Origin: Candidatus Aminicenantales bacterium
Lineage (GTDB): Bacteria; Acidobacteriota; Aminicenantia; Aminicenantales; Saccharicenantaceae
DNA: 64,000 nucleotides
Assembly (NCBI GenBank): GCA_050015275.1
Contig: JBEKBS010000009.1
Coordinates: 719-64,718 of the forward strand
Direction: 5' to 3'
Made by a program: the position numbers and the translations under genes. Under the pieces are notes generated by a model, which searched no databases, was not told the DNA's origin, and saw nothing but the letters and a program-made list of their open reading frames with translations. This document shows, piece after piece, positions 3,677 through 31,575 of this stretch (its first letter is position 1; each line of letters starts with the position of its first letter).

Positions 3677-3688
3677 AGGAGATCGAAG

Positions 3689-4705: not shown

Positions 4706-4745
4706 ACGGGCGCTCGGGACGTGCCGCGGAGAGAGCCAAGATTAT

Positions 4746-14229: not shown

Positions 14230-14319
14230 CCATGCCCGGGGCCGCCGACGTTCTGGCCCCGCAGAGCAGGTCGTGCTGGCATGATTTCTTGTGGTGATAA
14301 AAAACGTCGCCGAGGAGAC

Positions 14320-16095
14320 ATGATGAAACGCTTCCTGATTTCGTTTGTTCCCGGCCTGATCATTTTCGCTCTCGCCGGATGCTCGCGGGGGGTCACCGAG
14401 AGGACCGTCGCCTACACGTCCCGGCCGTGGCCGCCGCGGGTTTGGAAATCCGAAGCGCCCCCCGGCTGTCCCTTCGAACCCTCCCGGGACATCCGGGGTA
14501 TCGCCTTCACCCACAAATCAGCGACGTACACGGATGCCGATACTTGGTATCCGTCCTGGGCCTCCGACGGCAACATGTATAGCGGCTGGACGGACGGTGA
14601 GATCGGCGAGGAGTCCTGCCATTCGAGCGGCGGGGCGAAGGCTCGCACGGGCAACGCCAAGATCGCCGGCGACGATCCCTTGAATCTGACGGTTACCTCT
14701 CTCGGGTCAGAACCGGCCTCGGCCCTGCCGTACGGCGGACGCTATCCCAGCGCCAACCTCGTGCACAACGGGGTCTGGTATTACGGGACGTACTGCGTCG
14801 ACTTCGACCTGTCCAAACCTGAATACCGGGACCTCTACAGTTGGGCCATCTGCGGCCCGGTGCCGGGATTCCGGATCTCGTTGGACTACGGGAAGACCTG
14901 GATCCCGAGCCCGCTTTCGCCCGAAAAGCCACTCTTCCCGGAATCGGGGAAGGACGGGCGTCAGGTCAAGATGGGGACGCCCCATTTCGTGGACTTCGGA
15001 TGCAACCTGGAGCATTCCCCGGACGGGAAGGCCTACCTCGTCGGCCACGGCGCCCTAGACGTGGACCCCACGCCGCGCATCGCCGGGAACAGCTGGATCG
15101 CAGGCGACGCGGTCTACCTCGCGCGCGTAACTCCCAGCCCGAAAAACATCAACGATGTCAGGACTTACGAATTTTTCGCCGGCCGGGGGACTGACGGGCG
15201 TCCCGTCTGGTCCCGGAATTTCACGGACATCCGGCCGCTCCTGACCTGGGACGACCACATGGGCTGCGCGACGATAACCTATGATGCCCCGCTCCGCAAA
15301 TATCTGATGTGCGTCACCGACGGTTGGCCGGGCGTCGAGGACATGAACTCATACATCCTGGAAGCGGACGAGATCACAGGACCCTACAGGATGGTCACAT
15401 ACATGAACAAGTTCGGCCGGCAGGGCTACTTCCTGCACTTCCCGTCGAAGTTCATCAGCGCCGACGGCCGGACAGCGTGGCTATCCTACTCCGCGAACTT
15501 CCACAAAGCCTACTTCGGCAACCGGACGGCGGCCGATCCGATGGGCAGCCGCTACGCCTGGACTCTTCAGGAGGTCAAACTCCTGGGCGGGACCGGGGAA
15601 ATGTCCGGCCCGACGGAGAGCGATATGCCGCCGCTGGATCCGCTCAAGAACGAGAATAATATCGCCCTTCGCGCCAGGGTCAACGTCTCGTCGGTCCACA
15701 AGAAAAACAAGCCTTTCACTGAGCTGATGGAATATTTTGGCGAGGGGGCCGTAGACGGGATCGTCGACCTGAACACCGGGATCAACGCGCACGAATGGGT
15801 GAGCGGCGGCGAGCGGGAGACGGCCATGATCCGCCTCAGCTGGGATTCGCCGCAGACGGTGCGACGGGTCTGGCTTTTCGACCGTCCGGATCCGACCGAC
15901 CACATCACCTCGGGCATGCTGCTTTTCAGCGACGGGAGCACCATCCGCGTGGGTGAGCTTCCGAACGACGCGAGATCCTGCAAGGAGCTGAGCTTCCCGC
16001 CCAAGTCCGTCACCTGGGTCGTGTTCGTCGTCGATTCGGTTTCTAGAGAAACGGCCAACGTTGGCCTTGCCGAGATGGCGGTCTTCAGGGACTGA
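14320..16095 (+). CDS. Lipoprotein with a DUF4185-like beta-propeller domain (putative glycoside hydrolase) plus an extra C-terminal beta-sandwich domain
   Basis: SD AGGAGAC precedes ATG 14320. A lipobox LAGC is present. Conserved blocks DTWYPSWASDGNMYSGWTDGE, NLVHNGVWYYGTYC and GTPHFVDFG are shared with the paralog at 50308..51669. The DUF4185 assignment is from memory and unverified. Confidence 0.65.
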   Translation: MMKRFLISFVPGLIIFALAGCSRGVTERTVAYTSRPWPPRVWKSEAPPGCPFEPSRDIRGIAFTHKSATYTDADTWYPSWASDGNMYSGWTDGEIGEESCHSSGGAKARTGNAKIAGDDPLNLTVTSLGSEPASALPYGGRYPSANLVHNGVWYYGTYCVDFDLSKPEYRDLYSWAICGPVPGFRISLDYGKTWIPSPLSPEKPLFPESGKDGRQVKMGTPHFVDFGCNLEHSPDGKAYLVGHGALDVDPTPRIAGNSWIAGDAVYLARVTPSPKNINDVRTYEFFAGRGTDGRPVWSRNFTDIRPLLTWDDHMGCATITYDAPLRKYLMCVTDGWPGVEDMNSYILEADEITGPYRMVTYMNKFGRQGYFLHFPSKFISADGRTAWLSYSANFHKAYFGNRTAADPMGSRYAWTLQEVKLLGGTGEMSGPTESDMPPLDPLKNENNIALRARVNVSSVHKKNKPFTELMEYFGEGAVDGIVDLNTGINAHEWVSGGERETAMIRLSWDSPQTVRRVWLFDRPDPTDHITSGMLLFSDGSTIRVGELPNDARSCKELSFPPKSVTWVVFVVDSVSRETANVGLAEMAVFRD

Positions 16096-18392
16096 TGGAT
16101 AAGATCCGCTCGTTCTTCCGGGTCGAAACCCCGTCGATGAAAACTCCCTGGATCATGCTCGTCAGGATCGGCGCATTCATCGTTCTCACAACTGCCGCAT
16201 TGCCGATGAATCCCGCCCTGATTCCGTCGGCCCATCCAAGCCCGGCTCTGAGGCAGGCAGGGAAACCCTCCGCGGAGGCATCTTCGGGCCTGAAGGATTA
16301 TGGATTGAGAGATTATATCGGTCTCTCCAAGGGCCTGCCTCATTCGGAGAATAAGGGCTGGAAGCTTGTCTGCCGCATGCCATATAACTGCCATTTTCAG
16401 CCCTGGATCCAGCTGGAAGCCCCTGCGGGCCAGGTGATCCGCTTCAACTCCAGCAACCCGCTCGTCCTCTATCTGACACCCACGGAGACATATACGACCG
16501 TTTCGGGCGAGCAAAGCCACGAGGCGAAGAATTGGGTCAGCGGGGAGGGCGCGATTTATACCATTCCTGCCGGCGTGACCGTGAAGGCCGTCAAATACCG
16601 CGAAACGGGATACGACACGACCTTGGCCGGTTCGTTCGAGTGCAACGACGCCGACTTCAATATCCTCTGGAAAAAAGCGGCCAGGACCGTCTATGTCTGC
16701 ATGAGAGACCATTTCTACGACTGCCCCGACCGGGAGAGGGTCGGATTCTGGGGCGATGGGACGCCTGAACTCGGCCAGTGCTTTTATGCCTTCGATACGG
16801 CCTCCCATCGGCTGTGCAAAGAGCTGGTCCTGAGGAAACTCGAGCCCGATTTCTATCCCGGTCAACACCTGGAATTTCTCGGCGAATACGGGCTGTGGTT
16901 CTATTACCTGCACACCGGAGATCTGGATTCCATAAAAGCCGTCTATGACGCGACCAAGGCCTTTCTTTTGGAAACCTATAAGTTCGGCAATCCCAGGCAA
17001 TGGTTCGATTGGGGAAAGGATACAAAGGATATCCCCGTCATCGAGACCTGCTTTTATTATATTGACCTCAAGACCCTGAAGAAGATGGCCAAAGCGACCG
17101 GGCATGACGCGGATATCCCGGCCATCGAGGCAAGGCTCGAGGCCATCAAAAGCACGTTTGATGACAAATATTGGAAAGGGAACTGTTATAGGTCGGCGAA
17201 CGCCCTCGCGCCGGACGACCGGGCGAATGCCATGGCGGTCAATTCCGGACTGGCGGACCGCTCCAAATGGGCTGCGATCCACGACATGGTGCTGACCAAG
17301 ATGACGAATGCCAGCTGTTTTTTCGACCGGTGGGTCTTCGAGGCCCTGTGCACCATGGGAAAACAGGACACGGCCTTGCTCAGAATGTCCAGTCGATATA
17401 AGACCATGATCCCGTGCAGCTTCACGACCTTGTGGGAACATTACGACCGGTGGTGGGCGACAGGCCTCAACGCCTTCGACGAGGGCTCATCGCTCAACCA
17501 CGGCTGGAATCCCCCCGTCCTCAATCTCTCCCAAACCATTGCCGGGATTGCCCCGGAGGCGCCCGGGTGGACGACGTACCATGTGTTGCCCAAAGAGGCC
17601 TTTCTGACGACGATCAAGGTCGTCGTTCCCTCCATCAAGGGCAAGATCACGGTCCTCATGAAGAAAACCCCCAGGGAATATTCCCTGAGGCTGACGTCCC
17701 CCCCGTACACCCAGGCCATCGTCGGCATTCCCAAGAGTTCATTCTTGAAGCTGGATGCCATCAAGGTCAACGGGACGACCGTTTGGAGTGGAGCTTACCG
17801 CGGCGGGGTGGAAGGTATTTCCTGGAACGGAGAGGATGACGAATATATCAAATTCGAAGCGAACCCGGGGACATGGTCCTTGACCGGTTTGGGCACGTTG
17901 CCGATAAGCTCGCCGAAGCCGTTGCCGCCGCCGCCGGCGGATGATATCCCGCTGGAGAAGAAATCCTGGATCGCCTCCGCTTCGGTCGAAGACGGCACGT
18001 TTCTCTTCAGCGGAGATAAGATTCCTGTCGATGTTTCGGCCGCCAATGCCATCGACGGGGATCATTGGACCGGCTGGCGCGACATGACGAGAACGCAACA
18101 CAGCGGACAATGGTTCCAAGTCGATATGAGGCGGGCGGAAACGTTTTCCAAGATCGCTCTCGACAACACTTGGGCTTTGTGGGATTCTCCCAAGGCCTAT
18201 TCAGTTTCGGTCTCCAGGGACGGGATCCACTGGGGAAGCCCGATCGCCTCGGGATCGGGGCAGTTGGGACTGACGACCATCATCTTCCCCGCTCAGACCG
18301 CGCGTTATATCAGGATCACCCAGACCGGCGCGGATGCCACGTACCATTGGTCGATCTATGAACTGGATGTCTATCGGGAAAAACCGCATTAA
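16095..18392 (+). CDS. Short-form GH78-like alpha-L-rhamnosidase (six-hairpin glycosidase) with a C-terminal F5/8 type C discoidin (CBM32-like) domain
   Basis: The motif HFYDCPDRERVGFWGDG matches the GH78 catalytic-domain signature (DCPQRDERLGWTGD). The C-terminal 150 aa show a discoidin pattern (...WTGWRD...QWFQVDM...YSVSVSRDGIHW...ARYIRIT...YELDVY). The ATG overlaps the previous stop by 1 nt. Confidence 0.7.
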   Translation: MDKIRSFFRVETPSMKTPWIMLVRIGAFIVLTTAALPMNPALIPSAHPSPALRQAGKPSAEASSGLKDYGLRDYIGLSKGLPHSENKGWKLVCRMPYNCHFQPWIQLEAPAGQVIRFNSSNPLVLYLTPTETYTTVSGEQSHEAKNWVSGEGAIYTIPAGVTVKAVKYRETGYDTTLAGSFECNDADFNILWKKAARTVYVCMRDHFYDCPDRERVGFWGDGTPELGQCFYAFDTASHRLCKELVLRKLEPDFYPGQHLEFLGEYGLWFYYLHTGDLDSIKAVYDATKAFLLETYKFGNPRQWFDWGKDTKDIPVIETCFYYIDLKTLKKMAKATGHDADIPAIEARLEAIKSTFDDKYWKGNCYRSANALAPDDRANAMAVNSGLADRSKWAAIHDMVLTKMTNASCFFDRWVFEALCTMGKQDTALLRMSSRYKTMIPCSFTTLWEHYDRWWATGLNAFDEGSSLNHGWNPPVLNLSQTIAGIAPEAPGWTTYHVLPKEAFLTTIKVVVPSIKGKITVLMKKTPREYSLRLTSPPYTQAIVGIPKSSFLKLDAIKVNGTTVWSGAYRGGVEGISWNGEDDEYIKFEANPGTWSLTGLGTLPISSPKPLPPPPADDIPLEKKSWIASASVEDGTFLFSGDKIPVDVSAANAIDGDHWTGWRDMTRTQHSGQWFQVDMRRAETFSKIALDNTWALWDSPKAYSVSVSRDGIHWGSPIASGSGQLGLTTIIFPAQTARYIRITQTGADATYHWSIYELDVYREKPH

Positions 18393-18417
18393 TCAGGGGC
18401 CGGAAGGAGAACCGGGG

Positions 18418-20670
18418 ATGATACGAACGGTGAATGGCCGACGGGCGATTCTCGGTGCGATGATCCTATCAGCCTTGGGCTTGGTCCCGATGGCCGGCGA
18501 TCCCCCGCACCCCTCGAAATCCGTTCCCTCCGGTGGGGCTACGTTCTACGTTTCGAGCTCCGGCCTTGACAGTAATCCCGGCACGAAATTGGCGCCGTTC
18601 GCCACCCTGGCCCGGGCCCAGCAGGCGCTGCGGGCATGGAAAAAGACGGGCTCCGGCCCGGCCGTCGTCGAGGTGGGCCAAGGCACTTATGCTCTTGACC
18701 GCCCGCTGGTGTTCTCGCCCGAGGACTCCGGATCGGCGGCGTCCCCCGTCGTCTTTGCCGCCGCCCCGGGCGAGCGCGTGACCATCAGCGGGAGCTGCAC
18801 CCTGGATTGCCGCTGGAAGCCATACCGGGACGGGATCCTGATGTGCGACCTGCCCGCCGTCAAACAGGGGGGGGTCCGTTTTTCGCAGCTCTTCGTCAAC
18901 GGCAAACGCCAGACTCTGGCCCGATTTCCAAACCGGGACGATTCGAAACCCGGGCGAAGCGGCTATATCCACCCCGTGGGCCCGATCCCGGACGGCCTTC
19001 CTGACCCGAAGCCCGGAGAGAACGACGACATGACCTTCTCCGGCGGCGCCCCGCGGGGCATCCTCTTCGATTCCGCGTCGTTCACGGCCAAACGCTGGGC
19101 CCGGCCGGAAGAGGCGGTTATTCATATTTTCCAGGGCTGGGAGTGGGGCAACCTGCAATGGCGGCTAAAGGCGATCGATTATGACGGACGGGCGATCTGG
19201 TTCGGCGCGGGCGGGTTCCAGATGGGCGCCAAATATTTCGAGGACCCGGCCAAGATCGAAGCGGACTCGCGCTTTTTTATCGAGAATGTCTTCGAGGAGC
19301 TTGACGCTCCGGGGGAATGGTATTTGGATGTCAAAGCCGGGATCCTCTATGACTTGCCAGAGCCGGGAGTCGATATGGCGGTTGCGCGCGTCGAGGCCCC
19401 GCTCCTTGAGCAGCTCGTCCGGTTCGCCGGGACGCAGGACGCCCCGGTCCGCCACATCGCCATCGAGGGCTTCCACCTGACGCAGACGGCCTCGACGTTC
19501 CTCGAGCCCTACGACATTCCATCCCTGAGCGACTGGGCCATCCACCGCGGCGGGACCGTCTTTCTGGAGGGGACGCGGGACTGCGCGGTCAGGAACTGCT
19601 GGTTTGACGCCGTCGGCGGCAACGCCGTCTTCATCAGCAACTACAACCGGAACGCCACCGTCACCGGGTGCAAGTTCACGGAAACAGGCGACAGCGCGGT
19701 CTGCCTCGTCGGGACCCTGGGGGCCACGAACGGCACCCGCCGCGCCTTCCCCTACGAATGCACGGTGTCCAACAACCTGATCCACGACTGCGGGGTCTTC
19801 GGCAAGCAGATCGCGGGTGTCTACATCTCCAGGGCTAAGCGCATCACAGCCGCCCACAACACCATTTACAACATGCCCCGGGCGGGCATCTGCATCGGCG
19901 ACGGCACGTGGGGCGGCCACGTCATCGAGTTCAATCACATCCACGACACCGTCCGCGAAACGGGCGATCACGGACCGTTCAACGCCTGGGGCCGCGAGCG
20001 GTTCTGGAGTCTGATTCAATCCCACTCCGAATACAGCGTCCACCGGAGCCTCGAGGCCGGCGCCGTCAAGATCGACGCCATGGAGCCGGTCACCCTGCGG
20101 AACAATTTTTTCGAGGACCGCTCGGGCTGGGGCCTGGACCTCGACGACGGCGCCTCCAACTACGAGATCTACAACAATATTTCCAAGGGCATCAGCATCA
20201 AGCTGCGCGAGGGGGCCTACCGGACCATCTATAACAACATCTGGGTCGATAGTAACGTCGCGCCCTGCTTCCATGTGGGCAACGAGGACAACCATGACCG
20301 TTATTTCCGGAACATCACGGTGATGGCCCACGACGACGTCTATTCGATCATCGCCCCGCCGGCGCGGGGCCCGTGGCTCGAGGAGCTCGACCATAACTGC
20401 CTCTTCAGCCGGTCCGGTCGATTCACGGCCCGGATCAGCCAGATGCGCGGCGAAACCGGACCCGAAGGCGGATCCCGCCTGGTCGATCTCGAGGAATGGC
20501 GCAAACTCGGGTTCGACCGGAACTCGGTCTTCGCCGATCCCCTTTTTATCGACCCGGCCGGGAACGATTACCGGGTGCGGCCCGAATCGCCGGCCCTGCG
20601 GCTTGGTTTCAAAAATTTCGAGATGGGGCTTTGGGGGATCACCAAAGAATTTCCCCCTGAACTTCGCTGA
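18418..20670 (+). CDS. Secreted right-handed parallel beta-helix (pectin lyase-fold) protein, putative polysaccharide hydrolase or lyase
   Basis: SD GGAAGGAG precedes ATG 18418, followed by a signal peptide. Repeated beta-helix rungs are present (NAVFISNYNRNATVTGCKF, NNLIHDCGVFG, AHNTIYNMPRAGICIGDG, EFNHIHDTVRETGDHGPFNAWG). Confidence 0.7.
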   Translation: MIRTVNGRRAILGAMILSALGLVPMAGDPPHPSKSVPSGGATFYVSSSGLDSNPGTKLAPFATLARAQQALRAWKKTGSGPAVVEVGQGTYALDRPLVFSPEDSGSAASPVVFAAAPGERVTISGSCTLDCRWKPYRDGILMCDLPAVKQGGVRFSQLFVNGKRQTLARFPNRDDSKPGRSGYIHPVGPIPDGLPDPKPGENDDMTFSGGAPRGILFDSASFTAKRWARPEEAVIHIFQGWEWGNLQWRLKAIDYDGRAIWFGAGGFQMGAKYFEDPAKIEADSRFFIENVFEELDAPGEWYLDVKAGILYDLPEPGVDMAVARVEAPLLEQLVRFAGTQDAPVRHIAIEGFHLTQTASTFLEPYDIPSLSDWAIHRGGTVFLEGTRDCAVRNCWFDAVGGNAVFISNYNRNATVTGCKFTETGDSAVCLVGTLGATNGTRRAFPYECTVSNNLIHDCGVFGKQIAGVYISRAKRITAAHNTIYNMPRAGICIGDGTWGGHVIEFNHIHDTVRETGDHGPFNAWGRERFWSLIQSHSEYSVHRSLEAGAVKIDAMEPVTLRNNFFEDRSGWGLDLDDGASNYEIYNNISKGISIKLREGAYRTIYNNIWVDSNVAPCFHVGNEDNHDRYFRNITVMAHDDVYSIIAPPARGPWLEELDHNCLFSRSGRFTARISQMRGETGPEGGSRLVDLEEWRKLGFDRNSVFADPLFIDPAGNDYRVRPESPALRLGFKNFEMGLWGITKEFPPELR

Positions 20671-20737
20671 TGAGCGACGATCCTGAATATGCCACAGCTT
20701 GCCATGATCACCGGGGCTTGACCACAGGAGCGACACC

Positions 20738-21109
20738 ATGGCCCAACGCCTGATCAAAGTCCTCATGATCGCGGCCATCGCTCTGGCGGTGCTCTCCGGC
20801 CTGGCGCGCACTGTTTCTCAGGGTGATCAACCGGCGGTTCAGGATGCGCTGACCAGGGGCCGGCCGCCGATTCCCGAGCCCTATACCTATGTCGGCGCGG
20901 GACGCTTCAGCGGTCCGGAGGTGCCCGAATCGCCCGACCCCCTCGTCGCATACCGCTGGCCCAACCCCAAGACTTCTGATGGGCTGGAGATCTTCCTTCT
21001 TAAGCCCAAGGCCATCTCAGCCACCCCGGCCGGTTCGTTCGAGAATCTGCCGTCCCTGACCGGTCCCAAGCCCGACGTGACCGTCAGGGGGCACGGGCGC
21101 CTTCGCTAG
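20738..21109 (+). CDS. Small secreted hypothetical protein (123 aa)
   Basis: An AGGAG SD lies 8 nt upstream. A signal-anchor (MAQRLIKVLMIAAIALAVLSGLA) is followed by a Pro-rich region. No family is recognised. Confidence 0.4.
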   Translation: MAQRLIKVLMIAAIALAVLSGLARTVSQGDQPAVQDALTRGRPPIPEPYTYVGAGRFSGPEVPESPDPLVAYRWPNPKTSDGLEIFLLKPKAISATPAGSFENLPSLTGPKPDVTVRGHGRLR

Positions 21110-22429
21110 TTGTCCTTGCCATAGACTTCCAGCTCCGCCAATTGAAAACGGTATTCGAGCGGGCTGGAAGATATTTTGCCCAGCCTGGTTGCATAAACGC
21201 GGACATAACGGCAACGTCGGCTGGTGGAAACGAAAGATTGCACCCCCAGCACCTTCTGCCCGTGACCGTATCCGGTCCGGGTCACCAGGTCCGTCCAGTT
21301 GTTGAGGTCATCTGACGCTTGAATCTTGAAATCGGTCGGAAAGCCGCCACCCTCGGCCTCCTGGTCATCTCGCGGGCAGAGTTTGATGTTATCGATCCGG
21401 ACCGCCCGTCCTAGATCCACGCACACCCATTCGCTATGGTTCGGCGTATCGTGACCGGCGCTGCTCCAGCCGAGCGTGCCAGGCAGACTGTGAGTGATTT
21501 CGTTCACCAAATGATTTGTTCCCCAGCCGGCCTTTTCCAAAGAAGAACTGGCGGAAACCGGCTTCGCAGCGGCAAGGTCCAATTCCTGCTTTGCCTGCCG
21601 GCTGGCTAAAACACCAGGCATTCACTTCGTCGACGTCCCATTCCAGGTCGTAGGGCGGCTTCTCATCAAGAGTGCTCCCGCCATACTTATGGTAGGAAAC
21701 AAAATCGAGCGGCACCTCGGGATGCCCCCTGACATAATCTAACAGGGGTCCGAGCTTGGAGGTTGGAGAGAGAACGCCGGCGTCGGCAGCTCCGCCCACA
21801 TGAGCGGTGGGGTCCGTTTCTTTTATCGCTTCCGCGGTTTTGACATACAGGGCAACGTACTCCCGGCTCGAGCCCTTGAAGAACCGGACTATATCCGGCT
21901 CGTTCCAGACTTCCCAGCACCAGCCGTTGGAGCCGAGGTCCCTGTAGTGCTGAACATAGGCCTTGACGATTTGCTTCCACTCGTCCAGGTTTGTGGGAAC
22001 GCTGGCGGCGTCGCCGCCCTCGGGGAGCAGCACACCGGGGCAATACGCCAGGCACATCAGCGGAGTCATCCCCTTGTGGAGCATCGGTTTGATCACCCGG
22101 TCCAGTCGGCTGAAGTCGAACCGGAGTTTCCCGGCTTCGTCCCGGGCGGCCACCCGGTAGAATTTATCGTTCACCAAATGATCCAATCGGATCATCTTGA
22201 AGCCGATGGCGGCCAGATTATCGTAGGCTTCCGGTAGCCAGTTCAGGTTTTTCATCGGCTCATAGCCGCCCACCGATCCGTTGAGCAGCCGGGCTTTCTC
22301 CAGCGTGCCAGCCGTGGAATTATAATCTGCTCTGACGGTCAACAGATGCCAAGGAGATTCAGCCACGGACGCTATGGTGCAACCTACGGTCAAGGCGCAG
22401 ACCGCGAAGACCCGCGTGATTCGTATCAT
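21106..22429 (-). pseudogene. GH39-family glycoside hydrolase fused to a C-terminal discoidin/CBM32 domain, interrupted by a +1 frameshift at an A4/T4 homopolymer near 21607-21610
   Basis: The 331-aa ORF (21434..22429) carries lipoprotein signal LTVGC and GH39 blocks (FDFSRLD...KGMTP, HYRDLGSNGWCWEVWNEPD, YVALYVKTAEAIKETDP..VGG, LDFVSYHKYGG). The 171-aa ORF (21106..21621) in the adjacent frame is a discoidin domain. Removing one T from GTGTTTTAGCC gives a continuous reading ...NAWCLASRQAKQELDLAAAK... Confidence 0.7.
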
Positions 22430-22702
22430 GATCGTCTTACAGGGTGAGGATTGACGATTGAGGTTTCGGGCCTAAGAAATCGTTTTCGGGCGTTGTGCGG
22501 CTTCCGCTTCCGTTGGGCTTGATAGAGATGCTTCCCATTGCGAGAAAAGGATATTCCGAGCTACGGAGCGGTGTCAACGAGAACGCGATGGCTTCGAAGG
22601 CGAACTCATTCGTGACGTGCATTCAGGAAGGCCGGGCCATCTTAGAAGCGAGCTCCGATCTAAGAATCGCCCCGTGCCGTCGCACCCCAATGTCTCCGGG
22701 CT

Positions 22703-23845
22703 TCACCGAAGAACGGAGGCGATGGCGTCGTAGGCCGGCTTGGGCCGATAGTCCCTGTCGAAGATCAACGCATGATCGTATGTCCCGTTGCTGATCCCGG
22801 GGACCCATGAGTAACGGTCGGTAAAACCCCAGAAGAGGATGGCCGGACAGTTCGGCGCGGCGAGAGCGGCTTCGAAGACGCCGCGGTAGATCATCGCCTG
22901 TTGTCGGAAGTCCGCCTCGGTGGCGTTCTTGGGAAGCCAAACGTCGAGCTCGGTGATATGGACGGCCAGCCCGAGGTCGTTGAACCGCCTGATGTTCTCC
23001 GTCACCTCCGCCTGGGAGGGATGCTTGTCCAGCTGGACGTGATACTGCAATCCGATCCCGTGGATCGGCACGCCGCGGGCCAGGAGTCCCTTGACCCAGC
23101 GGTAGCACCGGTCGGCCTTTTCCGACATCCCGTCCATATCGAAGTCGTTATAGAAGAGCACGGCATGCGGGTCGGCTTCGTGGGCCCAGCGGTAGACCCT
23201 CTCGACGCATTCGGGGCCGATGGAATGATACCAGGGGCCCTCTTCCCGCAACCCCGGCCCCTTGTCGCTCAGGCCTTCGTTCAGGACATCCCACGCGAAC
23301 ACGCGCCCGCGGAAATGACGCATCACGGTGAAGATGTGCTCGCGAAGGATGTCGAGGGCTTCCTGGCGGGAAAACGTCTTGTCCATGGCCCACTCCGGCA
23401 GCGCGTCGTGCCAGACCAGCGGGACCGCGCGCACTTTCATGCCGTGCCGGCTGGCGAATGCCATCATCACTTCCGCAGGTCCGAAGTCGAATTGTCCCCG
23501 CACGCGCTGAAGGACATCCAGCTTCATCTCGTTCTCGGCCACGAGACAGTTGAACTCGCGCGCGATGACCTCGCGGTATCTCGGATCCTTCCTGAAAGCA
23601 TCGACGCTGAACGCGGTACCGAGAAGCAGACCTCTCCTTGCGGCCAGACTTCGCAGGGCATCCTGGTTCATTCGGACGTCATTCTTGGGGATGGCGGGAG
23701 AATTTGGCCCCCCACCATTCACGCGGTTGCCCGGCGCCGTACTCGAATATGATGTGAGGAGGAGAGGAACGGCGACCGCGAGACCGGCCGCCCCCGTGGC
23801 TTTCAAGAAGGCGCGCCGCGAAACTTCCTGTTCTTTGCTTTCCAT
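22703..23845 (-). CDS. GH10 endo-1,4-beta-xylanase, Tat-secreted
   Basis: A twin-arginine signal (SRRAFLKATGAAGLAVA) is present. GH10 catalytic motifs include the acid/base WDVLNE and nucleophile region ITELDV. The start at 23845 has SD AGGAGG. Confidence 0.9.
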   Translation of the reverse strand: MESKEQEVSRRAFLKATGAAGLAVAVPLLLTSYSSTAPGNRVNGGGPNSPAIPKNDVRMNQDALRSLAARRGLLLGTAFSVDAFRKDPRYREVIAREFNCLVAENEMKLDVLQRVRGQFDFGPAEVMMAFASRHGMKVRAVPLVWHDALPEWAMDKTFSRQEALDILREHIFTVMRHFRGRVFAWDVLNEGLSDKGPGLREEGPWYHSIGPECVERVYRWAHEADPHAVLFYNDFDMDGMSEKADRCYRWVKGLLARGVPIHGIGLQYHVQLDKHPSQAEVTENIRRFNDLGLAVHITELDVWLPKNATEADFRQQAMIYRGVFEAALAAPNCPAILFWGFTDRYSWVPGISNGTYDHALIFDRDYRPKPAYDAIASVLR

Positions 23846-23952
23846 TTCGCTTCCTCCTGAGCAAACCGCCATGACCTCAGCAGACACCGTCGATATCAAC
23901 GGCACAAGAACGGGAGGATAGGAGATCCCTATGCCCGCGACGGAACAGACAG

Positions 23953-26430
23953 CTATATCCTTCCGTGCCCGCGTTGCAAACCGCCCGCGTAAGTCTCCGG
24001 CTTGCTGTCGCCGACCCGAAGCGTTGCCCCGCGGGCCGATCGTATCGCAAAGCGCACAGCATCGCCCTCAAACTCGACATGGCGCAGCTCGACCGGCGCG
24101 TTGGCGGAGAAGAGCAAGCGGCTGTCGCGCCGCACCTCGAGATGCTTGGGGGAAAGTTCGACGTCGTAGAACGAACCAGCCACGTAGTACCGGCGGATCG
24201 CCCCTTCCTCGACGGGCTCGAGGTTTCCAAAACGCAAGCCATGCCAGGGGTTGGCATCAATGAACTCCTCGAGCGCCGTGAGGATCATCAGCGCGCCCCA
24301 AGTGTAATGCGGGTCGCTGGATCCTTCGCCGGTGGTGGCCAGGAAGTTCTCGTAGCACTCGGCCTTGTCGCGCCACGGCTTCAGGAACATCTTCGCGCTC
24401 GACTCGGCGAGCATCCTCGCTTCGTGGTCCCAGTCATAGATCTTGAAACCTTGGTAAACGAGCCAGTTGATCGGCGCCCAGACCTTGCCCCGCCAGTAGT
24501 GCTGTTTCGGGTACAAGGGGTCATCGCGGCTGATCGTCGGCAGGATCCATTCGCCGGCGAACTTGTTGGGATCGTAGAAATGCTTTTTCAGCGCCTCGGC
24601 GCGGTCGGCGGGCGTCACGCGGCCGAGCAGAGACAGGAAGATGTCGGGCGCCATGTGCGGCGTGTGCCATTTTCCGTTTTCCGGCGCCCAGCGGCGGTTC
24701 GCGTAGGAACCGCGCCCGGGGTCCCAAAGAAGCTGGTTGATCTTCTCCGTCATGGCGCGGTGTTCCTGTTCGAGCGCAGCGGCTTCCGCTGTCCGACCCA
24801 GCTCGCGCGCTATCCATGCGAGGATCCAGCAATCCATGGCGTAGAGGCAGTTCCGCTCGACCGTGTCGAGCTCGCACGTGTTGGTCTTCTCGTTGTATTT
24901 TGCGACGTGCCACCATTGCGGGCTGTCGTCATGCGACTCGAAATAGGCGGTCTGTTGGCGATCTTCGTAAGGGATTTCCTCGGGATAGTTGGACCCTAAC
25001 TCGAGCAGCCCGTTTCGGTTGCCGTCGCGCCAGGGCTGGCCATCGCCGCGGTCTAAAAACCACCAGCGGTGGTTCTTGAGCAGGCGCGGGTAGATTTCCG
25101 CAAGGAATGGCTTGCTGGGCCGGCGCATGTAGATCTTGGAAACGGCAAGGCCTCCGACGGGGTACTGGGTGTGGCCCCATGCGACCGGGAAGATCCAGTC
25201 GTTCGGCCGGGCCACCCATTGACCGTATTGCGCGAACATGCCCTGGTCGTTCTGCCAGGAAGTGATATCGCGCACAAGCGCGGAGGCCTTCTTTTCGTCT
25301 TCCTGGGCAACCAGCAGCGCGCTGAAAAAGCTGTCCCAAAGGAAGTCCGGTGCGCTGTTGTTTTCTCTGGCCCAAGCGCGGCTGACAGTGATGTAGGGGC
25401 GCCGTCGCTCGGGCGTGTAGACCTCGCTCCATTGGAGTTGGTCGTTGATAGCGGCCGGAACATCGGCCAGCCAGCCCACGCCCTCCGGGCGCGTGCGCAA
25501 GTACTCTTTGCGGTTGCGTTCCAGCAGATCATCGATCCGCCCGGCTTCCAGCCACGCCGCGGTGCTCGCCTGCAATTCTTCGTACGTCTGCCCTTGCCGC
25601 CCGCAAAGATACAATGTCTGGATGTTGCTGAAGAGCGCGTTCCAGTCACGCGGCATGCCCGGTCCGGCGTGCTCATCGTGGGTGACCTGCCGGCTCTCAT
25701 CGAAGGGTGCACTGAAAGCCGTGACGAAGCGCATCCCGTCGCGGGTGCCGGGTACCCAGGAACGCGCGCGCAGAAAACGGCGGCTGGGGCCGTCTGTGTA
25801 AAGAACAGAGAATTGGGGAGGGTGGCTGTCCCATGGTGTGTAGGCTTGGACCACGAGGTCGCAGGGCCGCGAATGCCTGATCCGGCAGACCACTTCGTTC
25901 ATGGCGGTTTGCGCCCATTCGTACGTCACCTCGGGTCCGCCGTCCGGCATCTGCCACACGAGGCGAGCGTATGAATTGTCGGGTGCCTTCGGGCCCACGA
26001 ACTTCCACCACTTGGGCCAGTCCGCGAACCAAGCCCGGAAGTTCTTGGCGCAGAACTCCGCGCCGCCCTCGCTATTCCGTTCCTTTGTCCAGGCCGCGGG
26101 AACGGTGAGAAACCGGAAGGCGAAAATATCAGCATGATCCGCGATGAAGACCTGCCCCGGCCAGGCGTCCGGAGATAGCGGCCCGACCAGCCATTCGTGA
26201 GTGTCCCGGAGCCGTTCCCACATCTTGAGCGGGTCCTCACCGGTCATCGTGGCCAAGCCCAAAAGTTTGTAGATTTGCGCCTTGTTGAGCGGGAGAGCGG
26301 CCGCTGCTTGCGGCACCGCCGGCACCCCGGCGCCTCCTGACGCCGCGGCGCCGGACAATGCCCGGCGGCCAAATCCCCGAAGAGCAGCCAGGCTCCAAAA
26401 CCCTTGGCGGAACAAATCCCGTCTGTTCAT
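23953..26430 (-). CDS. Tat-secreted (alpha/alpha)6-barrel glycoside hydrolase, GH63-like / MGH1-like (processing alpha-glucosidase or trehalase-type fold)
   Basis: The start MNRRDLFRQGFWSLAALRG gives a Tat motif, with SD GAGGTG. The C-terminal half carries six-hairpin blocks (HYWRGKVWAPINWLVYQGF, LWDPGRGSYANRRW, YTWGALMI). The family is assigned by pattern only. Confidence 0.55.
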   Translation of the reverse strand: MNRRDLFRQGFWSLAALRGFGRRALSGAAASGGAGVPAVPQAAAALPLNKAQIYKLLGLATMTGEDPLKMWERLRDTHEWLVGPLSPDAWPGQVFIADHADIFAFRFLTVPAAWTKERNSEGGAEFCAKNFRAWFADWPKWWKFVGPKAPDNSYARLVWQMPDGGPEVTYEWAQTAMNEVVCRIRHSRPCDLVVQAYTPWDSHPPQFSVLYTDGPSRRFLRARSWVPGTRDGMRFVTAFSAPFDESRQVTHDEHAGPGMPRDWNALFSNIQTLYLCGRQGQTYEELQASTAAWLEAGRIDDLLERNRKEYLRTRPEGVGWLADVPAAINDQLQWSEVYTPERRRPYITVSRAWARENNSAPDFLWDSFFSALLVAQEDEKKASALVRDITSWQNDQGMFAQYGQWVARPNDWIFPVAWGHTQYPVGGLAVSKIYMRRPSKPFLAEIYPRLLKNHRWWFLDRGDGQPWRDGNRNGLLELGSNYPEEIPYEDRQQTAYFESHDDSPQWWHVAKYNEKTNTCELDTVERNCLYAMDCWILAWIARELGRTAEAAALEQEHRAMTEKINQLLWDPGRGSYANRRWAPENGKWHTPHMAPDIFLSLLGRVTPADRAEALKKHFYDPNKFAGEWILPTISRDDPLYPKQHYWRGKVWAPINWLVYQGFKIYDWDHEARMLAESSAKMFLKPWRDKAECYENFLATTGEGSSDPHYTWGALMILTALEEFIDANPWHGLRFGNLEPVEEGAIRRYYVAGSFYDVELSPKHLEVRRDSRLLFSANAPVELRHVEFEGDAVRFAIRSARGATLRVGDSKPETYAGGLQRGHGRI

Positions 26431-26779
26431 TGGCACCTCACCACAGCCGATTCGGCCTCGCTGCGGGCTTCTAACCCTTGATTCTTCGCCGGATGTCGAC
26501 TTGAGATCACAGTTTGTTCCTGTCCCATACCTCAACACTTCCGTCCCGCACAGGATAATTCCGGCCGCGGATCGAGGTCAAGGACAAACACCTAAACATG
26601 TCCACACGGCGAAAGCCGGAGCCTGTCCGCTTAATTTAGTTTCGCTTTCGTCCTCCGTGGCGCCTGAGCGATGCCTCGCAACATGGCATGCACAGCCATC
26701 CCTAAACCGAACAGGCATGCTTAGCCGGCGGTCTTTGTTCGCCAAGACCAGGTGGATTATAATATTGGGGGAGGATGAG

Positions 26780-27538
26780 ATGCGCGGATTGAAAGGCAAA
26801 CGAACTGTCGTCACTGGCGGGGCCCAGGGCATCGGGGCGGCCATCGCGGCCCGCTTTCTCGATGAGGGAGCCCGGGTAGCCATCCTCGACAGGAACGAGG
26901 CGGCCCTCGACGGTGTGAAGACGCAGCTTCCCGGCCTGGAAACGGTCCTTCGAGCGGATGTCTCGGATCCGGAATCCGTGGCCGGAGCTTTCGCCCGGCT
27001 GGATGATCTGTGGGGCGGGCTCGACGTCCTCATCAACAACGCGGGCATCAGCCTCCGCCATCGCTTCCTCGACACTACGGAGGCGGAATGGCGGCGGGTC
27101 ATCGACACGAACCTCAACGGGGTGTTCTATTGCGCCCGCGAAGCGGCCGGGCGTATGGCCGCCGGCTCGGGCGGCGTCGTCCTCAACATGGGATCGACCA
27201 ACGGGATCATGGGCTATCATTACTACGCCGACTACAACGCCTCGAAGGCCGGAGTCATCGAGCTGACCCGGTCCATGGCCCTCGAACTCGCGCCCAGGGT
27301 CCGGGTCAACTGCGTCTGCCCGGGCTTCATCCTGACGCCCATGCAAGAGGCCGAATACACCCCGGAAAAGCGCCGAGTCTTCGAGGCCAAAGTGCCGCTT
27401 GGCCGGCTCGGCCGGCCGGAAGAAGTAGCGGCCCTCTTCGCTTTCTTGGCCTCCGATGATGCCGCGTTCATTACGGGCCAATCGTTCGTCATCGACGGGG
27501 GGGAGATCGCCGGCGGTCTGGCCAGTCAGAGAGAATAA
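26780..27538 (+). CDS. Short-chain dehydrogenase/reductase (classical SDR)
   Basis: A TGGAQGIG Rossmann motif and NNAG are present, with catalytic S...YxASK (YNASKAG). ATG 26780 is preceded by GGGGGAGGA. The upstream part of the ORF-track ORF (from 26282) is promoter DNA. Confidence 0.85.
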   Translation: MRGLKGKRTVVTGGAQGIGAAIAARFLDEGARVAILDRNEAALDGVKTQLPGLETVLRADVSDPESVAGAFARLDDLWGGLDVLINNAGISLRHRFLDTTEAEWRRVIDTNLNGVFYCAREAAGRMAAGSGGVVLNMGSTNGIMGYHYYADYNASKAGVIELTRSMALELAPRVRVNCVCPGFILTPMQEAEYTPEKRRVFEAKVPLGRLGRPEEVAALFAFLASDDAAFITGQSFVIDGGEIAGGLASQRE

Positions 27539-27754
27539 TAAGCAACCTAGCGGCCCAGGAGATCCACCGCGGCATATTGGAGCTAGCCGCCGGCCTTCAC
27601 CGGATCGGCAGCGCGGAGATGCCAATTTTCCGGGACCTCATCCCTTTTCCTTACACCCATATTTAAGGGGGGGGGCAGGCCAGACCCGTTACGTTGACAG
27701 TCCCCGGTCCCTGTGGTATATCGAGGGTCGCTTCGCGACATGGGCGAGGCCTTC

Positions 27755-28537
27755 ATGAATCCAAAAGCATTAAAGATCGTTTCTCTCGAGGGACGGGTGG
27801 CCGTCATTTCCGGCGCCGCTTCTGGAATCGGGCTGGGCTCAGCCCGCCGGCTGGCAGAATTCGGGGCTGGGGTCGTCCTTCTTGACATCCACCGGGAGAA
27901 AGGAACCGCGGCCGCCGAAGGAATCGCCGCCCGAGGCGGCCGGGCGCTCTTCATCTCTTGCGACGTCCGCTCGGAGGCCGATTGCCGCCGGGCCGTAGAG
28001 GAGACGATCCGCGAGTTCGGTTGCATCGATATCCTCTTCAATAATGCCGGCGTCATTGTACGTAAGAACGCCATCGAGCTCAGGGAAGAGGAGTGGGACC
28101 TTACGCTCGACGTCATGCTCAAAGGGACCTATCTCCTGTCGCATCATGTCATCCCCCATATGATCGCCGCCGGAGGGGGGAGCATCATCAACATGGGCTC
28201 CGGCTGGGCCCTCAAAGGCGGCCCTGACGCGGTCGCCTACTGTGCAGCCAAGGGCGGAATCCTCAACATCACCCGGGCCATGGCCATCGACCATGGCCGC
28301 CACGGCATCCGGGTCAACTGCGTCTGCCCGGGCGACATCGACACGCCCTTGCTCCGGAGCGAATGCGCCCAGCTCGGTCAGGAGGAGGAGGCGTTCATGG
28401 CAGCCGCGGCCCTGCGGCCTCTGGCTCGGGTGGGGACGCCCGAGGATGTGGCCAACGCCGTCCTCTTTTTCGCGAGCGATCTTTCGAAATGGGTGACCGG
28501 CGCCTTCCTCGTCGTGGATGGCGGCGGCATCGCCTAG
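27755..28537 (+). CDS. Short-chain dehydrogenase/reductase (classical SDR), second tandem copy
   Basis: Motifs ISGAASGIG and NNAG are present, with YCAAKGG. An alternative GTG start lies at 27713. Confidence 0.85.
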   Translation: MNPKALKIVSLEGRVAVISGAASGIGLGSARRLAEFGAGVVLLDIHREKGTAAAEGIAARGGRALFISCDVRSEADCRRAVEETIREFGCIDILFNNAGVIVRKNAIELREEEWDLTLDVMLKGTYLLSHHVIPHMIAAGGGSIINMGSGWALKGGPDAVAYCAAKGGILNITRAMAIDHGRHGIRVNCVCPGDIDTPLLRSECAQLGQEEEAFMAAAALRPLARVGTPEDVANAVLFFASDLSKWVTGAFLVVDGGGIA

Positions 28538-28636
28538 CGCCGGGATCAGGGCCCGTCTTTCTCGCACGAGACCGGCGGGCCGCCCGGCCGAGATGAGAAC
28601 GACTGATGGATGTGCAGTCCGACCCTTGAGGTGCCC

Positions 28637-30034
28637 ATGAGCGACGAAAAGCCCTTTGTCCATCCCTACATCCCGAATTCCGTCCCCGAAGTGAAGGGAC
28701 AGATGTTGAGGGATATCGGCGTCCGGAGCGTTGATGAGCTTTACGGCGATATCCCCGAGCGGCTGCGTTTCCGCGGCCGGATGAACCTGCCCGAGCCGTT
28801 GACATCGGAAGCGGCGCTGAAACGGCATGTCGAGGGCATCCTCGGCAGAAACCGGTCCTGCGCCGAAACGCTGAGCTTCCTCGGCGGCGGATGCTGGCCA
28901 CACTACGTGCCGGCCGTCTGCGATGAGATCAACCGCCGCTCGGAATTCTTGACAGCCTACGCTGGAGAGCCGTACGAGGACCACGGCCGGTTCCAGGCCC
29001 TCTTCGAATATGAGAGCCTGATGGCCGAACTCCTCGACATGGATGTCGTCAACGTCCCGACCTTCGACTGGTGCCAGGCGGCCAGCACGTCGGTCCGGAT
29101 GGCCGGCCGGATCACGAAAAGGAACGAGGCCCTCGTCGCGGACACGATCGGTCCCGACCGTCTGCTGGTCATGAAGAACTATTGCCGCGGCGTGATGAGC
29201 CTCGTCCCGGTCCGTCATGATCCTGAGACGGGCGGCATGGATCTCGAGGACCTGGCGGCCAAATTCACGGAAAAGACGGCCGCGGTCTATTTTGAGAATC
29301 CATCCTACCTGGGCTTCCTCGAAACCCAGGGGCAGCGGATTGCCGAGATGGCCCACGCCCGCGGCGGGCTCTGCGTCGTCGGCGTGGACCCCATATCGTT
29401 GGGCGTCATCGCCCCGCCGGGCCACTACGGTGCCGATATCGTCTGCGGTGACATCCAGCCCCTCGGCGTCCACATGAACTTCGGAGGCGGCCAGGCCGGC
29501 TTCATCTCAACCCGGGACGAAGAAAGGTTCGTCATGGAATACCCATCGCGGCTCTTCGGGATCGCCAAGACGGCGGTCGAGGGGGAATGGGGGTTTGGCG
29601 ACGTGGCCTACGACCGGACCTCGTTCGGCGTCCGGGAAAAAGGCAAGGAGTTCGTCGGGACGGCAGCGGCTCTCTGGGGGATCACGGCCGGCGTCTATCT
29701 GGCCCTCATGGGGCCGCAGGGGATGCGGGAGCTGGGACAACACATCCTCCAGAAGTCCCAATATGCCTTGAAAAAGATCGCTAAGCTTTCCGGCGTGAAA
29801 GCCCCTCGCTTCAGGTCGCCTTATTTCAAGGAATTCGTCGTCGATTTCACCGGGACCGGGAAGAGCGTGGCCGATATCAACCAAGCCCTCCTCGGGCGTG
29901 GGATTTTCGGGGGGAGAGACCTGGGCCGGGATTTCCCCGGCCTGGCGGGCTGTGTCCTTTTCTGCGTCACGGAGGTCCACACGAAAGACGACATCGATTC
30001 CCTGGCGGCGGCCCTCGAGGAGGTGCTCCGATGA
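28637..30034 (+). CDS. gcvPA: Glycine dehydrogenase (decarboxylating) subunit 1, split P-protein N-terminal half
   Basis: GcvPA blocks are present: FLGGGCWPHYVPAV, EFLTAYAGEPYE, QALFEYESLMAEL and GADIVCGDIQPLG. SD GAGGTG precedes the start. gcvT and gcvH are not adjacent. Confidence 0.85.
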   Translation: MSDEKPFVHPYIPNSVPEVKGQMLRDIGVRSVDELYGDIPERLRFRGRMNLPEPLTSEAALKRHVEGILGRNRSCAETLSFLGGGCWPHYVPAVCDEINRRSEFLTAYAGEPYEDHGRFQALFEYESLMAELLDMDVVNVPTFDWCQAASTSVRMAGRITKRNEALVADTIGPDRLLVMKNYCRGVMSLVPVRHDPETGGMDLEDLAAKFTEKTAAVYFENPSYLGFLETQGQRIAEMAHARGGLCVVGVDPISLGVIAPPGHYGADIVCGDIQPLGVHMNFGGGQAGFISTRDEERFVMEYPSRLFGIAKTAVEGEWGFGDVAYDRTSFGVREKGKEFVGTAAALWGITAGVYLALMGPQGMRELGQHILQKSQYALKKIAKLSGVKAPRFRSPYFKEFVVDFTGTGKSVADINQALLGRGIFGGRDLGRDFPGLAGCVLFCVTEVHTKDDIDSLAAALEEVLR

Positions 30035-31575
30035 AGCTGCGGGCTTTCCATCAGGCGAAATGGGACGAGGAGGTCATCTTCGAGCTCAGCACGAAGGGAG
30101 AGAGAGGGATCCTCGTCCCGCCGGTCGAGAAGGCCCTCGCGGATGAAGTCGGCGACGGGATCTCGGCCCTTCCCGAATCCCTTCGCCGCATGACCCCGCC
30201 CGCGCTTCCCGAGATCTCTCAGATGCGGGTCTTGAAACACTACCTCCGCCTCTCCCAGCAAACGCTCGGCGCCGATCTCAACGTGGACATCGGCCAAGGA
30301 ACGTGCACGGTCAAGTACAACCCGAAGATCAACGACGCCCTGGCCGCGTCGCCCAAAGTGGCGGAGCTCCACCCCTTCCAGGACGAGAGCACCGTCCAGG
30401 GCGCCCTGGAGATCATCTACAAGCTGGACCTTTTCATGCGGGAGATCTCGGGGCTCGACCGGTTCTCCTTCCAGCCGGCTTCGGGCTCAGCGGCCATCCT
30501 CGCCATGGCCTCGATTATCCAGGCCTGGCATGAATCGCGGGGGGAGGGGAAGACCCGCGACGAGGTCATCACGACCATCTTCTCCCATCCCTCCGACGCG
30601 GCTGCGGCCGCCGTCAAAGGCTACAAAGTCGTCACGATTTATCAGACGGAAGACGGCCTTCCCGACCTCGAAGCCCTGAAGCTCGCCGTCTCGGAGCGGA
30701 CGGCCGGGCTTCTCATCACGAACCCCGAGGACACGGGCATCTTCAACCCGAAAATAGACGAGATCACCCGGATCGTCCGCGCGGCCGGCGGGCTGTGTGG
30801 CTATGACCAGGCCAACGCCAACGGCATCCTGGGCGTGACCCGGGCCCGCGAGGCCGGCTTCGACATGTGTTTCTTCAACCTCCACAAGACGTTCGGGACG
30901 CCCCACGGCTGCGGCGGCCCGGCCTGCGGCGCCCTCGGCGTCGTCGGGGAGCTCATGGATTACCTGCCCGTCCCGCTCGTCGATTTCGACGGCGAGAAAT
31001 ATCTCCTCCGCTATGACCTGAAGAACACAATCGGCAAGGTCCGGAGCTTCTACGGCGTCTTTCCCGCGATCCTCAAGGCCTACGCCTGGATCATGAGCTT
31101 GGGAGACCGCGGCCTTCGCGAGGCGGCGAATGTGGCGGTGCTCAACAACAATTACATTTTGGAAAAGGTCAAGAAGATCCGCGGGGCAAGCGCCCCCTTT
31201 GCCCAGGGACGGCACCGGATCGAACAGGTGCGTTACAGTTGGGAGAAACTCACGAGGGACACGGGCGTCACGACGGAGGACGTCGCCCTCCGGATGGCGG
31301 ATTTCGGCTTTCACCTTTGGTCGAGCCATCACCCCTTCATCGTGCCCGAACCCTTCACCATCGAGCCGACCGAATCTTACTCCAAAGCCGAGATCGACGA
31401 GTATCTGGCCGCCCTGAAAAAGATCTCCGGCGAGGCCTATGAGGACCCGGCGAAGGTCAAGGGGGCTCCCTACCGGAGCGTCGTCCATCGGATCGACCAC
31501 GGCTGGTTCGAGGACCCGGCGAGATGGGCGATCACCTGGCGTTCTTACCTGAAGAAGCACGGAAAAGGCATTTGA
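30031..31575 (+). CDS. gcvPB: Glycine dehydrogenase (decarboxylating) subunit 2, PLP-binding C-terminal half
   Basis: An ATGA overlap joins it to gcvPA. The PLP-lysine region FNLHKTFGTPHGCGGP is present. It is 514 aa. Confidence 0.9.
   Translation: MKLRAFHQAKWDEEVIFELSTKGERGILVPPVEKALADEVGDGISALPESLRRMTPPALPEISQMRVLKHYLRLSQQTLGADLNVDIGQGTCTVKYNPKINDALAASPKVAELHPFQDESTVQGALEIIYKLDLFMREISGLDRFSFQPASGSAAILAMASIIQAWHESRGEGKTRDEVITTIFSHPSDAAAAAVKGYKVVTIYQTEDGLPDLEALKLAVSERTAGLLITNPEDTGIFNPKIDEITRIVRAAGGLCGYDQANANGILGVTRAREAGFDMCFFNLHKTFGTPHGCGGPACGALGVVGELMDYLPVPLVDFDGEKYLLRYDLKNTIGKVRSFYGVFPAILKAYAWIMSLGDRGLREAANVAVLNNNYILEKVKKIRGASAPFAQGRHRIEQVRYSWEKLTRDTGVTTEDVALRMADFGFHLWSSHHPFIVPEPFTIEPTESYSKAEIDEYLAALKKISGEAYEDPAKVKGAPYRSVVHRIDHGWFEDPARWAITWRSYLKKHGKGI

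Follow-up and report, generated by a model that had tools for sequence, protein, structure and literature searches.

An internal 692-bp deletion very probably accounts for the split GH39–CBM32 gene of a peat Candidatus Aminicenantales lineage

The closest known counterparts of the gene studied here are bacterial GH39 beta-xylosidases of known structure, XynB1 of G. stearothermophilus (GsXynB1; PDB 2BS9, 1W91 and 2BFG) and XynB of Thermoanaerobacterium saccharolyticum (1PX8 and 1UHV). The acid/base and nucleophile glutamates of G. stearothermophilus XynB1 were reportedly identified by Bravman and co-workers and by Czjzek and co-workers in 2005, and we take them to be E160 and E278, respectively. 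Members of GH39 are retaining (beta/alpha)8 enzymes of clan GH-A, in which one glutamate serves as the nucleophile and another as the acid/base (PMC6887791). The family also covers PslG and alpha-L-iduronidase, so that a substrate is not assignable from GH39 membership. Unlike the crystallised xylosidases, an Aminicenantales/Anaerolineae-type family of 627–761 aa has a C-terminal F5/8 type C module. In bacteria, which show a deletional bias, deletion pseudogenes can arise when replication slips, or when illegitimate recombination takes place, at short homologies independently of RecA. The locus described here resembles the known pseudogenes of this kind: it has internal losses of 0.7 and 2.2 kb and keeps one repeat copy at each junction. 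The repeats at its ancestral breakpoints are 3 nt and about 10–13 nt long, the latter imperfect, and nothing about them is distinctive.

The window that we analysed is a stretch of 64,000 nucleotides from a contig of a Candidatus Aminicenantales bacterium. On its minus strand, two open reading frames, ORF1 (21434..22429, 331 aa) and ORF2 (21106..21621, 171 aa), overlap by 188 nt in adjacent frames. ORF1 matched the Pfam family Glyco_hydro_39 (PF01229) with 89.9 bits, above the gathering score, but only over profile positions 44–227 of 472; this truncated coverage, read from the alignment, is an early visible warning sign. ORF2 belongs to F5_F8_type_C (PF00754; 61.9 bits against a cut-off of 28.2) and also matched PF22633, the NedA-like galactose-binding domain (49 bits, cut-off 27.8). 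These coordinates and matches agree with an earlier note on this DNA, which had described a GH39 ORF and a discoidin ORF overlapping in adjacent frames and had explained the split by a +1 frameshift in a T4/A4 homopolymer. The run exists, one base away from where it had been placed (AAAA on the plus strand, T4 on the minus strand, at 21608–21611 rather than at about 21607–21610). Removing one base from it gave a 440-aa ORF reading ...NAWCLASRQAKQELDLAAAKPVSASSS..., and the continuous protein that the earlier note had proposed was thus reproduced exactly as written.

Using the frame-corrected 440-aa protein as a query, we found 59 relatives. The full-length relatives with both Pfam domains have 627–761 aa and are encoded by single ORFs; the window holds a disrupted GH39 plus discoidin (CBM32-like) gene. 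The two halves are not conserved as separate genes; more distant relatives also carry both domains in a single ORF. The two closest relatives are P0001 (671 aa, 88% identity) and P0002 (670 aa, 73% identity), and a 331-aa cluster, P0003, equals ORF1 save for one substitution. P0001 reads ...EWNVDEVNVQLASRGLPPRDIFVTEWN..., continues for approximately 230 residues and then reads ...EPAGRVVMPGVLASRQAEQELDLAAAKPVSASSS..., whereas the window protein passes from ...EWDVDEVN directly into MPGVLASRQAKQELD without these intervening residues. The supposedly restored protein is thus 440 aa long against about 670 aa in its full-length relatives. One further relative, P0006 (594 aa, 71% identity; L031 8001–9785, ENA ERZ25039454 contig_27165), ends in a frameshifted CBM32 (...GWSSPPMIHPTMTSGR...). 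Its gene context differs from that of the window, with trypsin-like proteases nearby, and it comes from a 'contig_' style assembly; this frameshift could represent an inactivation event of its own or an indel error of long reads.

P0001 is encoded on L001, an ENA contig that shows synteny with the window. In both, two SDR genes, a GH63-like gene and a GH10 gene lie upstream, and genes for a beta-helix protein, a GH78+CBM32 protein, a DUF7402 protein and a GH95 protein lie downstream. The 671-aa ORF follows the GH10 gene in four contigs (L001, L020, L033 and L034), of which L020 belongs to the metagenome-assembled genome (MAG) Candidatus Aminicenantales bacterium SPRUCE_645 (JBEKXF010000027.1). 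The SPRUCE_645 protein (MGA2363105.1, P0060) and P0001 differ at one residue. The SPRUCE_645 orthologue is the same gene in the same syntenic position, with approximately 92% nucleotide identity to the window across the neighbourhood, and it shares 88% amino acid identity with the N-terminal part and 95% with the CBM32 part of the window remnants. Unlike the window, this sister lineage has the 692-bp middle segment of the gene and a full 865-aa GH78-like neighbour. No GH39 paralogue was found elsewhere in the window by tblastn.

We compared the reverse-complemented window with L001 by blastn and obtained collinear high-scoring segment pairs (HSPs) that skip two stretches of L001. The first skipped stretch comprises 692 bp (L001 10812–11503), and the HSPs flanking it overlap by 3 nt (Table 1). 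At the junction, the window reads GACGAAGTGAATG followed by CCTGGTGTTTTAGCCAGCCGG; the ancestral sequence reads GACGAAGTGAATG followed by TCCAGCTCGCATCC on the left side and GGGTCGTTATG followed by CCCGGTGTTTTAGCCAGCCGG on the right side. Intact, full-length, syntenic orthologues thus exist, and the gap can be defined to the nucleotide. It joins codon 270/271 of the 671-aa orthologue to codon 501, and the deleted part corresponds to residues 271–501 (231 residues). Because 692 = 3 × 230 + 2, the downstream CBM32 segment is out of frame, and because this length is not a multiple of 3, the locus has the look of two overlapping ORFs. The 5′ remnant contains a signal-like N-terminus and the initial portion of the (beta/alpha)8 barrel; the 3′ remnant runs from a linker through the F5/8 type C (CBM32-like) domain to the ancestral stop codon, and it counts as an ORF only because ancestral codon 501 happens to be ATG. 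The tail of ORF1 beyond the junction has no protein homology, and in-frame similarity to P0001 in tblastn stops within a few residues of the junction. The frame thus breaks at the deletion junction, and not in the homopolymer. Intact L001 carries an identical GGTGTTTTAGCCAGCCGG, in frame, in which T4 is read as Val-Leu, and its right breakpoint reads ATGCCCGGTGTTTTAGCCAGCCGG with T4 unchanged.

Table 1 Features of the disrupted locus in window coordinates.
Feature	Position	Strand	Description and evidence
5′ remnant of GH39–CBM32 gene	21619..22429	-	Codons 1–270 of orthologue; tblastn P0001 1–276, 87.7% identity
692-bp deletion junction	21619..21621	-	ATG at both ancestral breakpoints; blastn HSP ends and three-way comparison
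3′ remnant	21106..21621	-	Codons 501–671; tblastn P0001 501–671, 94.7% identity; PF00754
Out-of-frame ORF1 tail	21434..21618	-	Approximately 61 codons after the junction; CBM32 start in the wrong frame, chance stop
T4 run	21608..21611	-	Intact orthologue has a run of equal length and context, encoding V-L in frame; not the lesion
2227-bp deletion junction	21092..21104	.	Imperfect 13-nt direct repeat; overlapping blastn HSP ends; same in 18 contigs
123-aa GH78-like stub	20738..21109	+	tblastn against L001 865-aa protein, residues 1–123, 80.5% identity

To see which catalytic parts were lost, we aligned P0001 with PDB chains using phmmer. Residues 74–375 matched G. stearothermophilus GH39 beta-xylosidase XynB1 (2bs9/1w91) with an E value of 1.9e-20, and intact P0001 shares the motifs EVWNEP and (I/V)TE(Y/W)N with the bacterial GH39 beta-xylosidases. 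EVWNEP of P0001 aligned with EVWNEP of XynB1, whose glutamate is chain residue 160 (counted along the alignment), and FVTEWN of P0001 aligned with HITEYN, whose glutamate is chain residue 278. Compared with these xylosidases, the window remnant keeps the acid/base motif, with Glu177 in WNEPD retained in ORF1. By contrast, the nucleophile strand is gone: Glu287 in VTEWN lies within the deletion and has no equivalent in either window ORF. The rest of the barrel is missing as well (ORF1 covers PF01229 44–227, against 44–432 in P0001), as is the accessory domain, which follows the barrel alignment at approximately residues 376 to 500 of P0001 and lies wholly within the deletion. The CBM32 coding segment is kept, but its in-frame link to the signal peptide or to the catalytic domain is gone. 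With the nucleophile, the later barrel strands and the whole accessory domain deleted, no frame correction could restore activity, and the frame-corrected 440-aa product, to judge from its sequence, could not be an active retaining glycosidase. We infer that the remnants are non-functional. On these alignments, the locus no longer qualifies as a functional GH39 gene, and its ancestry in GH39 is unambiguous.

The same lesion recurs in independent assemblies. We compared window positions 20600–22600 with 18 loci (L002–L019) taken from JGI, ENA (MEGAHIT k141 and SPAdes NODE) and Logan assemblies of different samples. All 18 were 99.9–100% identical to the window without gaps, and both deletion junctions and T4 were present in each of them. 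The sole junction-proximal variant among these contigs was CCTGG versus CCCGG, the latter being ancestral, as in L001. The junction occurred in JGI data sets 3300017929, 17941, 17998, 18015, 18021, 18025 and 18057, in ENA analyses ERZ4200889 and the ERZ2725xxxx series, and in Logan assemblies of SRR7027834, 7028227, 7028244, 12951266 and 12951270. Their consecutive identifiers suggest that the JGI samples come from the same peatland project as the SPRUCE MAG. At least 37 contigs carry ORF1, either exactly or with one residue changed, and the exact ORF1 is listed in 38 blocks of the sequence collection index. None of the members of the P0001 cluster was an intact allele on a window-type backbone; they comprised the intact protein of the sister lineage (P0060 and P0062) and ORF2 (P0061 and P0063). 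When metagenomes were scanned with the deleted 231-aa peptide, it likewise turned up in two lineages only, at 100% in the sister lineage (L033) and at 83% in a third one (L034), and never on a window-type backbone; the scan used six exact 8-mer patterns, for which we estimate the chance of missing a window-type intact allele at approximately 0.07, based on 88% amino acid identity. Taken from these contigs, the deletion appears to be fixed in the window population; a sister population with about 92% nucleotide identity to the window still has the gene intact.

These results bear directly on two rival explanations. One is a one-base insertion or slippage in T4 of an otherwise intact gene, arising as a sequencing error or as a phase-variable or programmed frameshift, such that correcting the base restores the enzyme. 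The continuous 440-aa ORF obtained by deleting one T speaks for it, as does the ATG junction lying only 8 nt upstream of the run. However, the intact orthologue reads a run of equal length in frame, the run is invariant in the 18 independent contigs, and the 440-aa product is not collinear with its homologues, lacking 231 residues of the full-length relatives, the nucleophile glutamate included. We consider that this explanation has virtually no chance of being correct. The earlier note had left room for a sequencing error, a slippage-prone site or a recent inactivation. The identical junction and T4, free of indels in 18/18 contigs, exclude the first, and the lack of any length polymorphism in T4 among the same contigs excludes the second. 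The third came closest: inactivation was borne out, but the homopolymer as its lesion was not. The other explanation is that mis-assembly produced the deletion and that the organism itself has an undamaged gene. The window is indeed apparently metagenome-assembled, and the exact ORF1 is a protein of a Candidatus Aminicenantales MAG (MGD1009584.1). Against this, at least four assembly pipelines produced the identical junction from many samples, and the sole repeat at the junction, 3 nt, is far too short to collapse an assembly. An artefact is thus extremely improbable.

The second stretch of L001 skipped by the window comprises 2227 bp (L001 12031–14257). At this junction the window reads GAAGGCGCCCGTG, and the ancestral copies of the repeat read GAAGGCGGCCGTG and GATGGCGCCCGCG. 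The loss truncated a convergent gene that is intact in L001 (12013–14610) and L020, where it encodes an 865-aa protein with the Pfam domains Bac_rhamnosid6H and Bac_rhamnosid_C. The stub that remains in the window consists of the N-terminal 118 residues of this protein, followed by 5 out-of-frame codons and a stop, and has no Pfam match over its 123 aa. In the third lineage (L034, Ga0209777_10013528), the GH39–CBM32 gene is intact (671 aa, 2188–4203), and the GH78-like gene has been eroded by several different deletions to approximately 560 nt of patchy fragments (4204–4797), corresponding approximately to amino acids 1–63, 253–329, a piece of 448–541 and 611–631. These breakpoints differ from those of the window, and this loss of the GH78-like gene is therefore independent. 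Unlike the window, the sister lineage has a TGG-to-TGA nonsense codon at codon 285 of the GH63-like/MGH1-like gene (L001 6957–6959, equivalent to window 25473–25471 on the minus strand), so that the gene is called as proteins of 284 and 440 aa; the window has TGG at this position and an intact 790-aa ORF (23953–26325). The nonsense codon may mark reciprocal gene decay, or it may stem from one wrong base in the contig. The surrounding region (window 14281–31572, both strands) is rich in CAZymes, with genes for DUF7402, GH78+CBM32, Pel9A/GH141-like beta-helix, GH10 and GH63-like proteins, followed by the two SDR genes and the glycine-cleavage genes gcvP1/gcvP2, and it is collinear with the sister lineage at 87–96% amino acid identity. 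Judging by the contigs compared, this CAZyme cluster is losing different glycosidases in different lineages.

We next asked how the remnants have evolved, using Nei–Gojobori dN/dS between the window and L001. The ratio was 0.38 for the GH39 remnant (270 codons), 0.33 for the CBM32 remnant (171 codons) and 0.30 for the GH78-like stub, compared with 0.11–0.21 for ten neighbouring genes. These raised pairwise values fit some relaxation of selection. When substitutions were polarised with the third lineage as the outgroup, the window branch carried 15 synonymous and 17 nonsynonymous changes and the intact branch 12 and 21 (Fisher p = 0.46), and thus there was no nonsynonymous excess on the window branch in these small counts. 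Nor did the remnants contain any secondary stop codon or frameshift. Either the deletion is young compared with the 8% divergence, or there are too few changes to count; with no demonstrable extra decay after the deletion, we therefore claim neither post-deletion decay nor an age.

The 530-bp segment that survives between the two deletions (21092–21621) is 96.2% identical to L001 at the nucleotide level, compared with about 87–93% in the flanks (91.5% and 87.1%). Its dS is 0.078, on 9 synonymous differences only, against 0.13–0.29 in the other segments and genes compared. This conservation could reflect chance, local constraint or a recombination patch. It would also be accounted for if the deletion had caused a domain fission that preserved function, freeing ORF2 as a stand-alone carbohydrate-binding protein or leaving the N-terminal fragment with a non-catalytic role; such a fission would explain why the most conserved piece of the locus survived between two deletions. 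ORF2 does open with an ATG, the ancestral Met501 codon, and runs for 171 codons uninterrupted, no part of the locus is better conserved by identity than its CBM32 segment, which combines this with the dN/dS given above, and 3/9 polarised window-branch changes in it are nonsynonymous. However, with counts this small the conservation is not significant. ORF2, which begins with MPGVLASRQAKQELD, lacks the N-terminal hydrophobic signal segment of the ancestral protein, so that, read from its sequence, the product would be cytoplasmic and away from the polysaccharide. Moreover, no evident ribosome-binding site precedes its start, which falls within ORF1, and the calls of different gene callers vary between 171 aa, 104 aa and nothing at all. 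The N-terminal fragment is unlikely to fold, being half of a (beta/alpha)8 barrel to which a nonsense tail of 61 residues is attached. We therefore regard a functional fission as very unlikely, and there is likewise only a slim chance that ORF2 is translated alone from Met501, yielding a small carbohydrate-binding protein that selection maintains.

The reading that we favour, and hold to be very probably correct, is that the locus is a fixed deletion pseudogene, in which a 671-aa GH39–CBM32 gene lost 692 bp and with them its nucleophile, and the GH78-like neighbour was also destroyed. The ancestor would have been one secreted 671-aa enzyme, in which an accessory domain lay between a catalytic GH39 (beta/alpha)8 domain and the F5/8 type C (CBM32-like) module at the C-terminus. 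In the lineage of the window, a Candidatus Aminicenantales from SPRUCE peat, a single 692-bp deletion occurred at the 3-nt ATG microhomology. The anatomy of the junction points to RecA-independent, short-homology replication slippage or illegitimate recombination, and 3 nt of microhomology is too short to prove the mechanism. The gene was presumably no longer needed when it was deleted, and the allele would then have become fixed in the population. A second event, the 2227-bp deletion at a short imperfect direct repeat, destroyed the convergent GH78-like gene. Both deletions with their exact junctions, and the absence of the nucleophile, are shown by the alignments and recur across assemblies.

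Sister populations in the same peat would thus show reciprocal losses within one glycoside-hydrolase cluster: the GH39 and GH78-like genes in the window lineage, the GH63-like gene, through its nonsense codon, in the sister lineage, and the independently eroded GH78-like gene in the third lineage. This pattern is ordinary niche-level gene decay and opens no new question. The main value of the finding is practical, as a warning against one-base 'repair' and as a correction of public annotations. Overlapping ORFs in adjacent frames beside a homopolymer invite such a fix, which here would yield a 440-aa chimera without any natural precursor and incapable of activity. In NCBI, ORF1 is entered as 'hypothetical protein ABR951_05465', and JGI names a 1-residue variant of ORF2 'allantoicase'; neither fragment is flagged as a pseudogene. 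CAZyme inventories of the window Aminicenantales population would accordingly over-count one GH39 and one CBM32.
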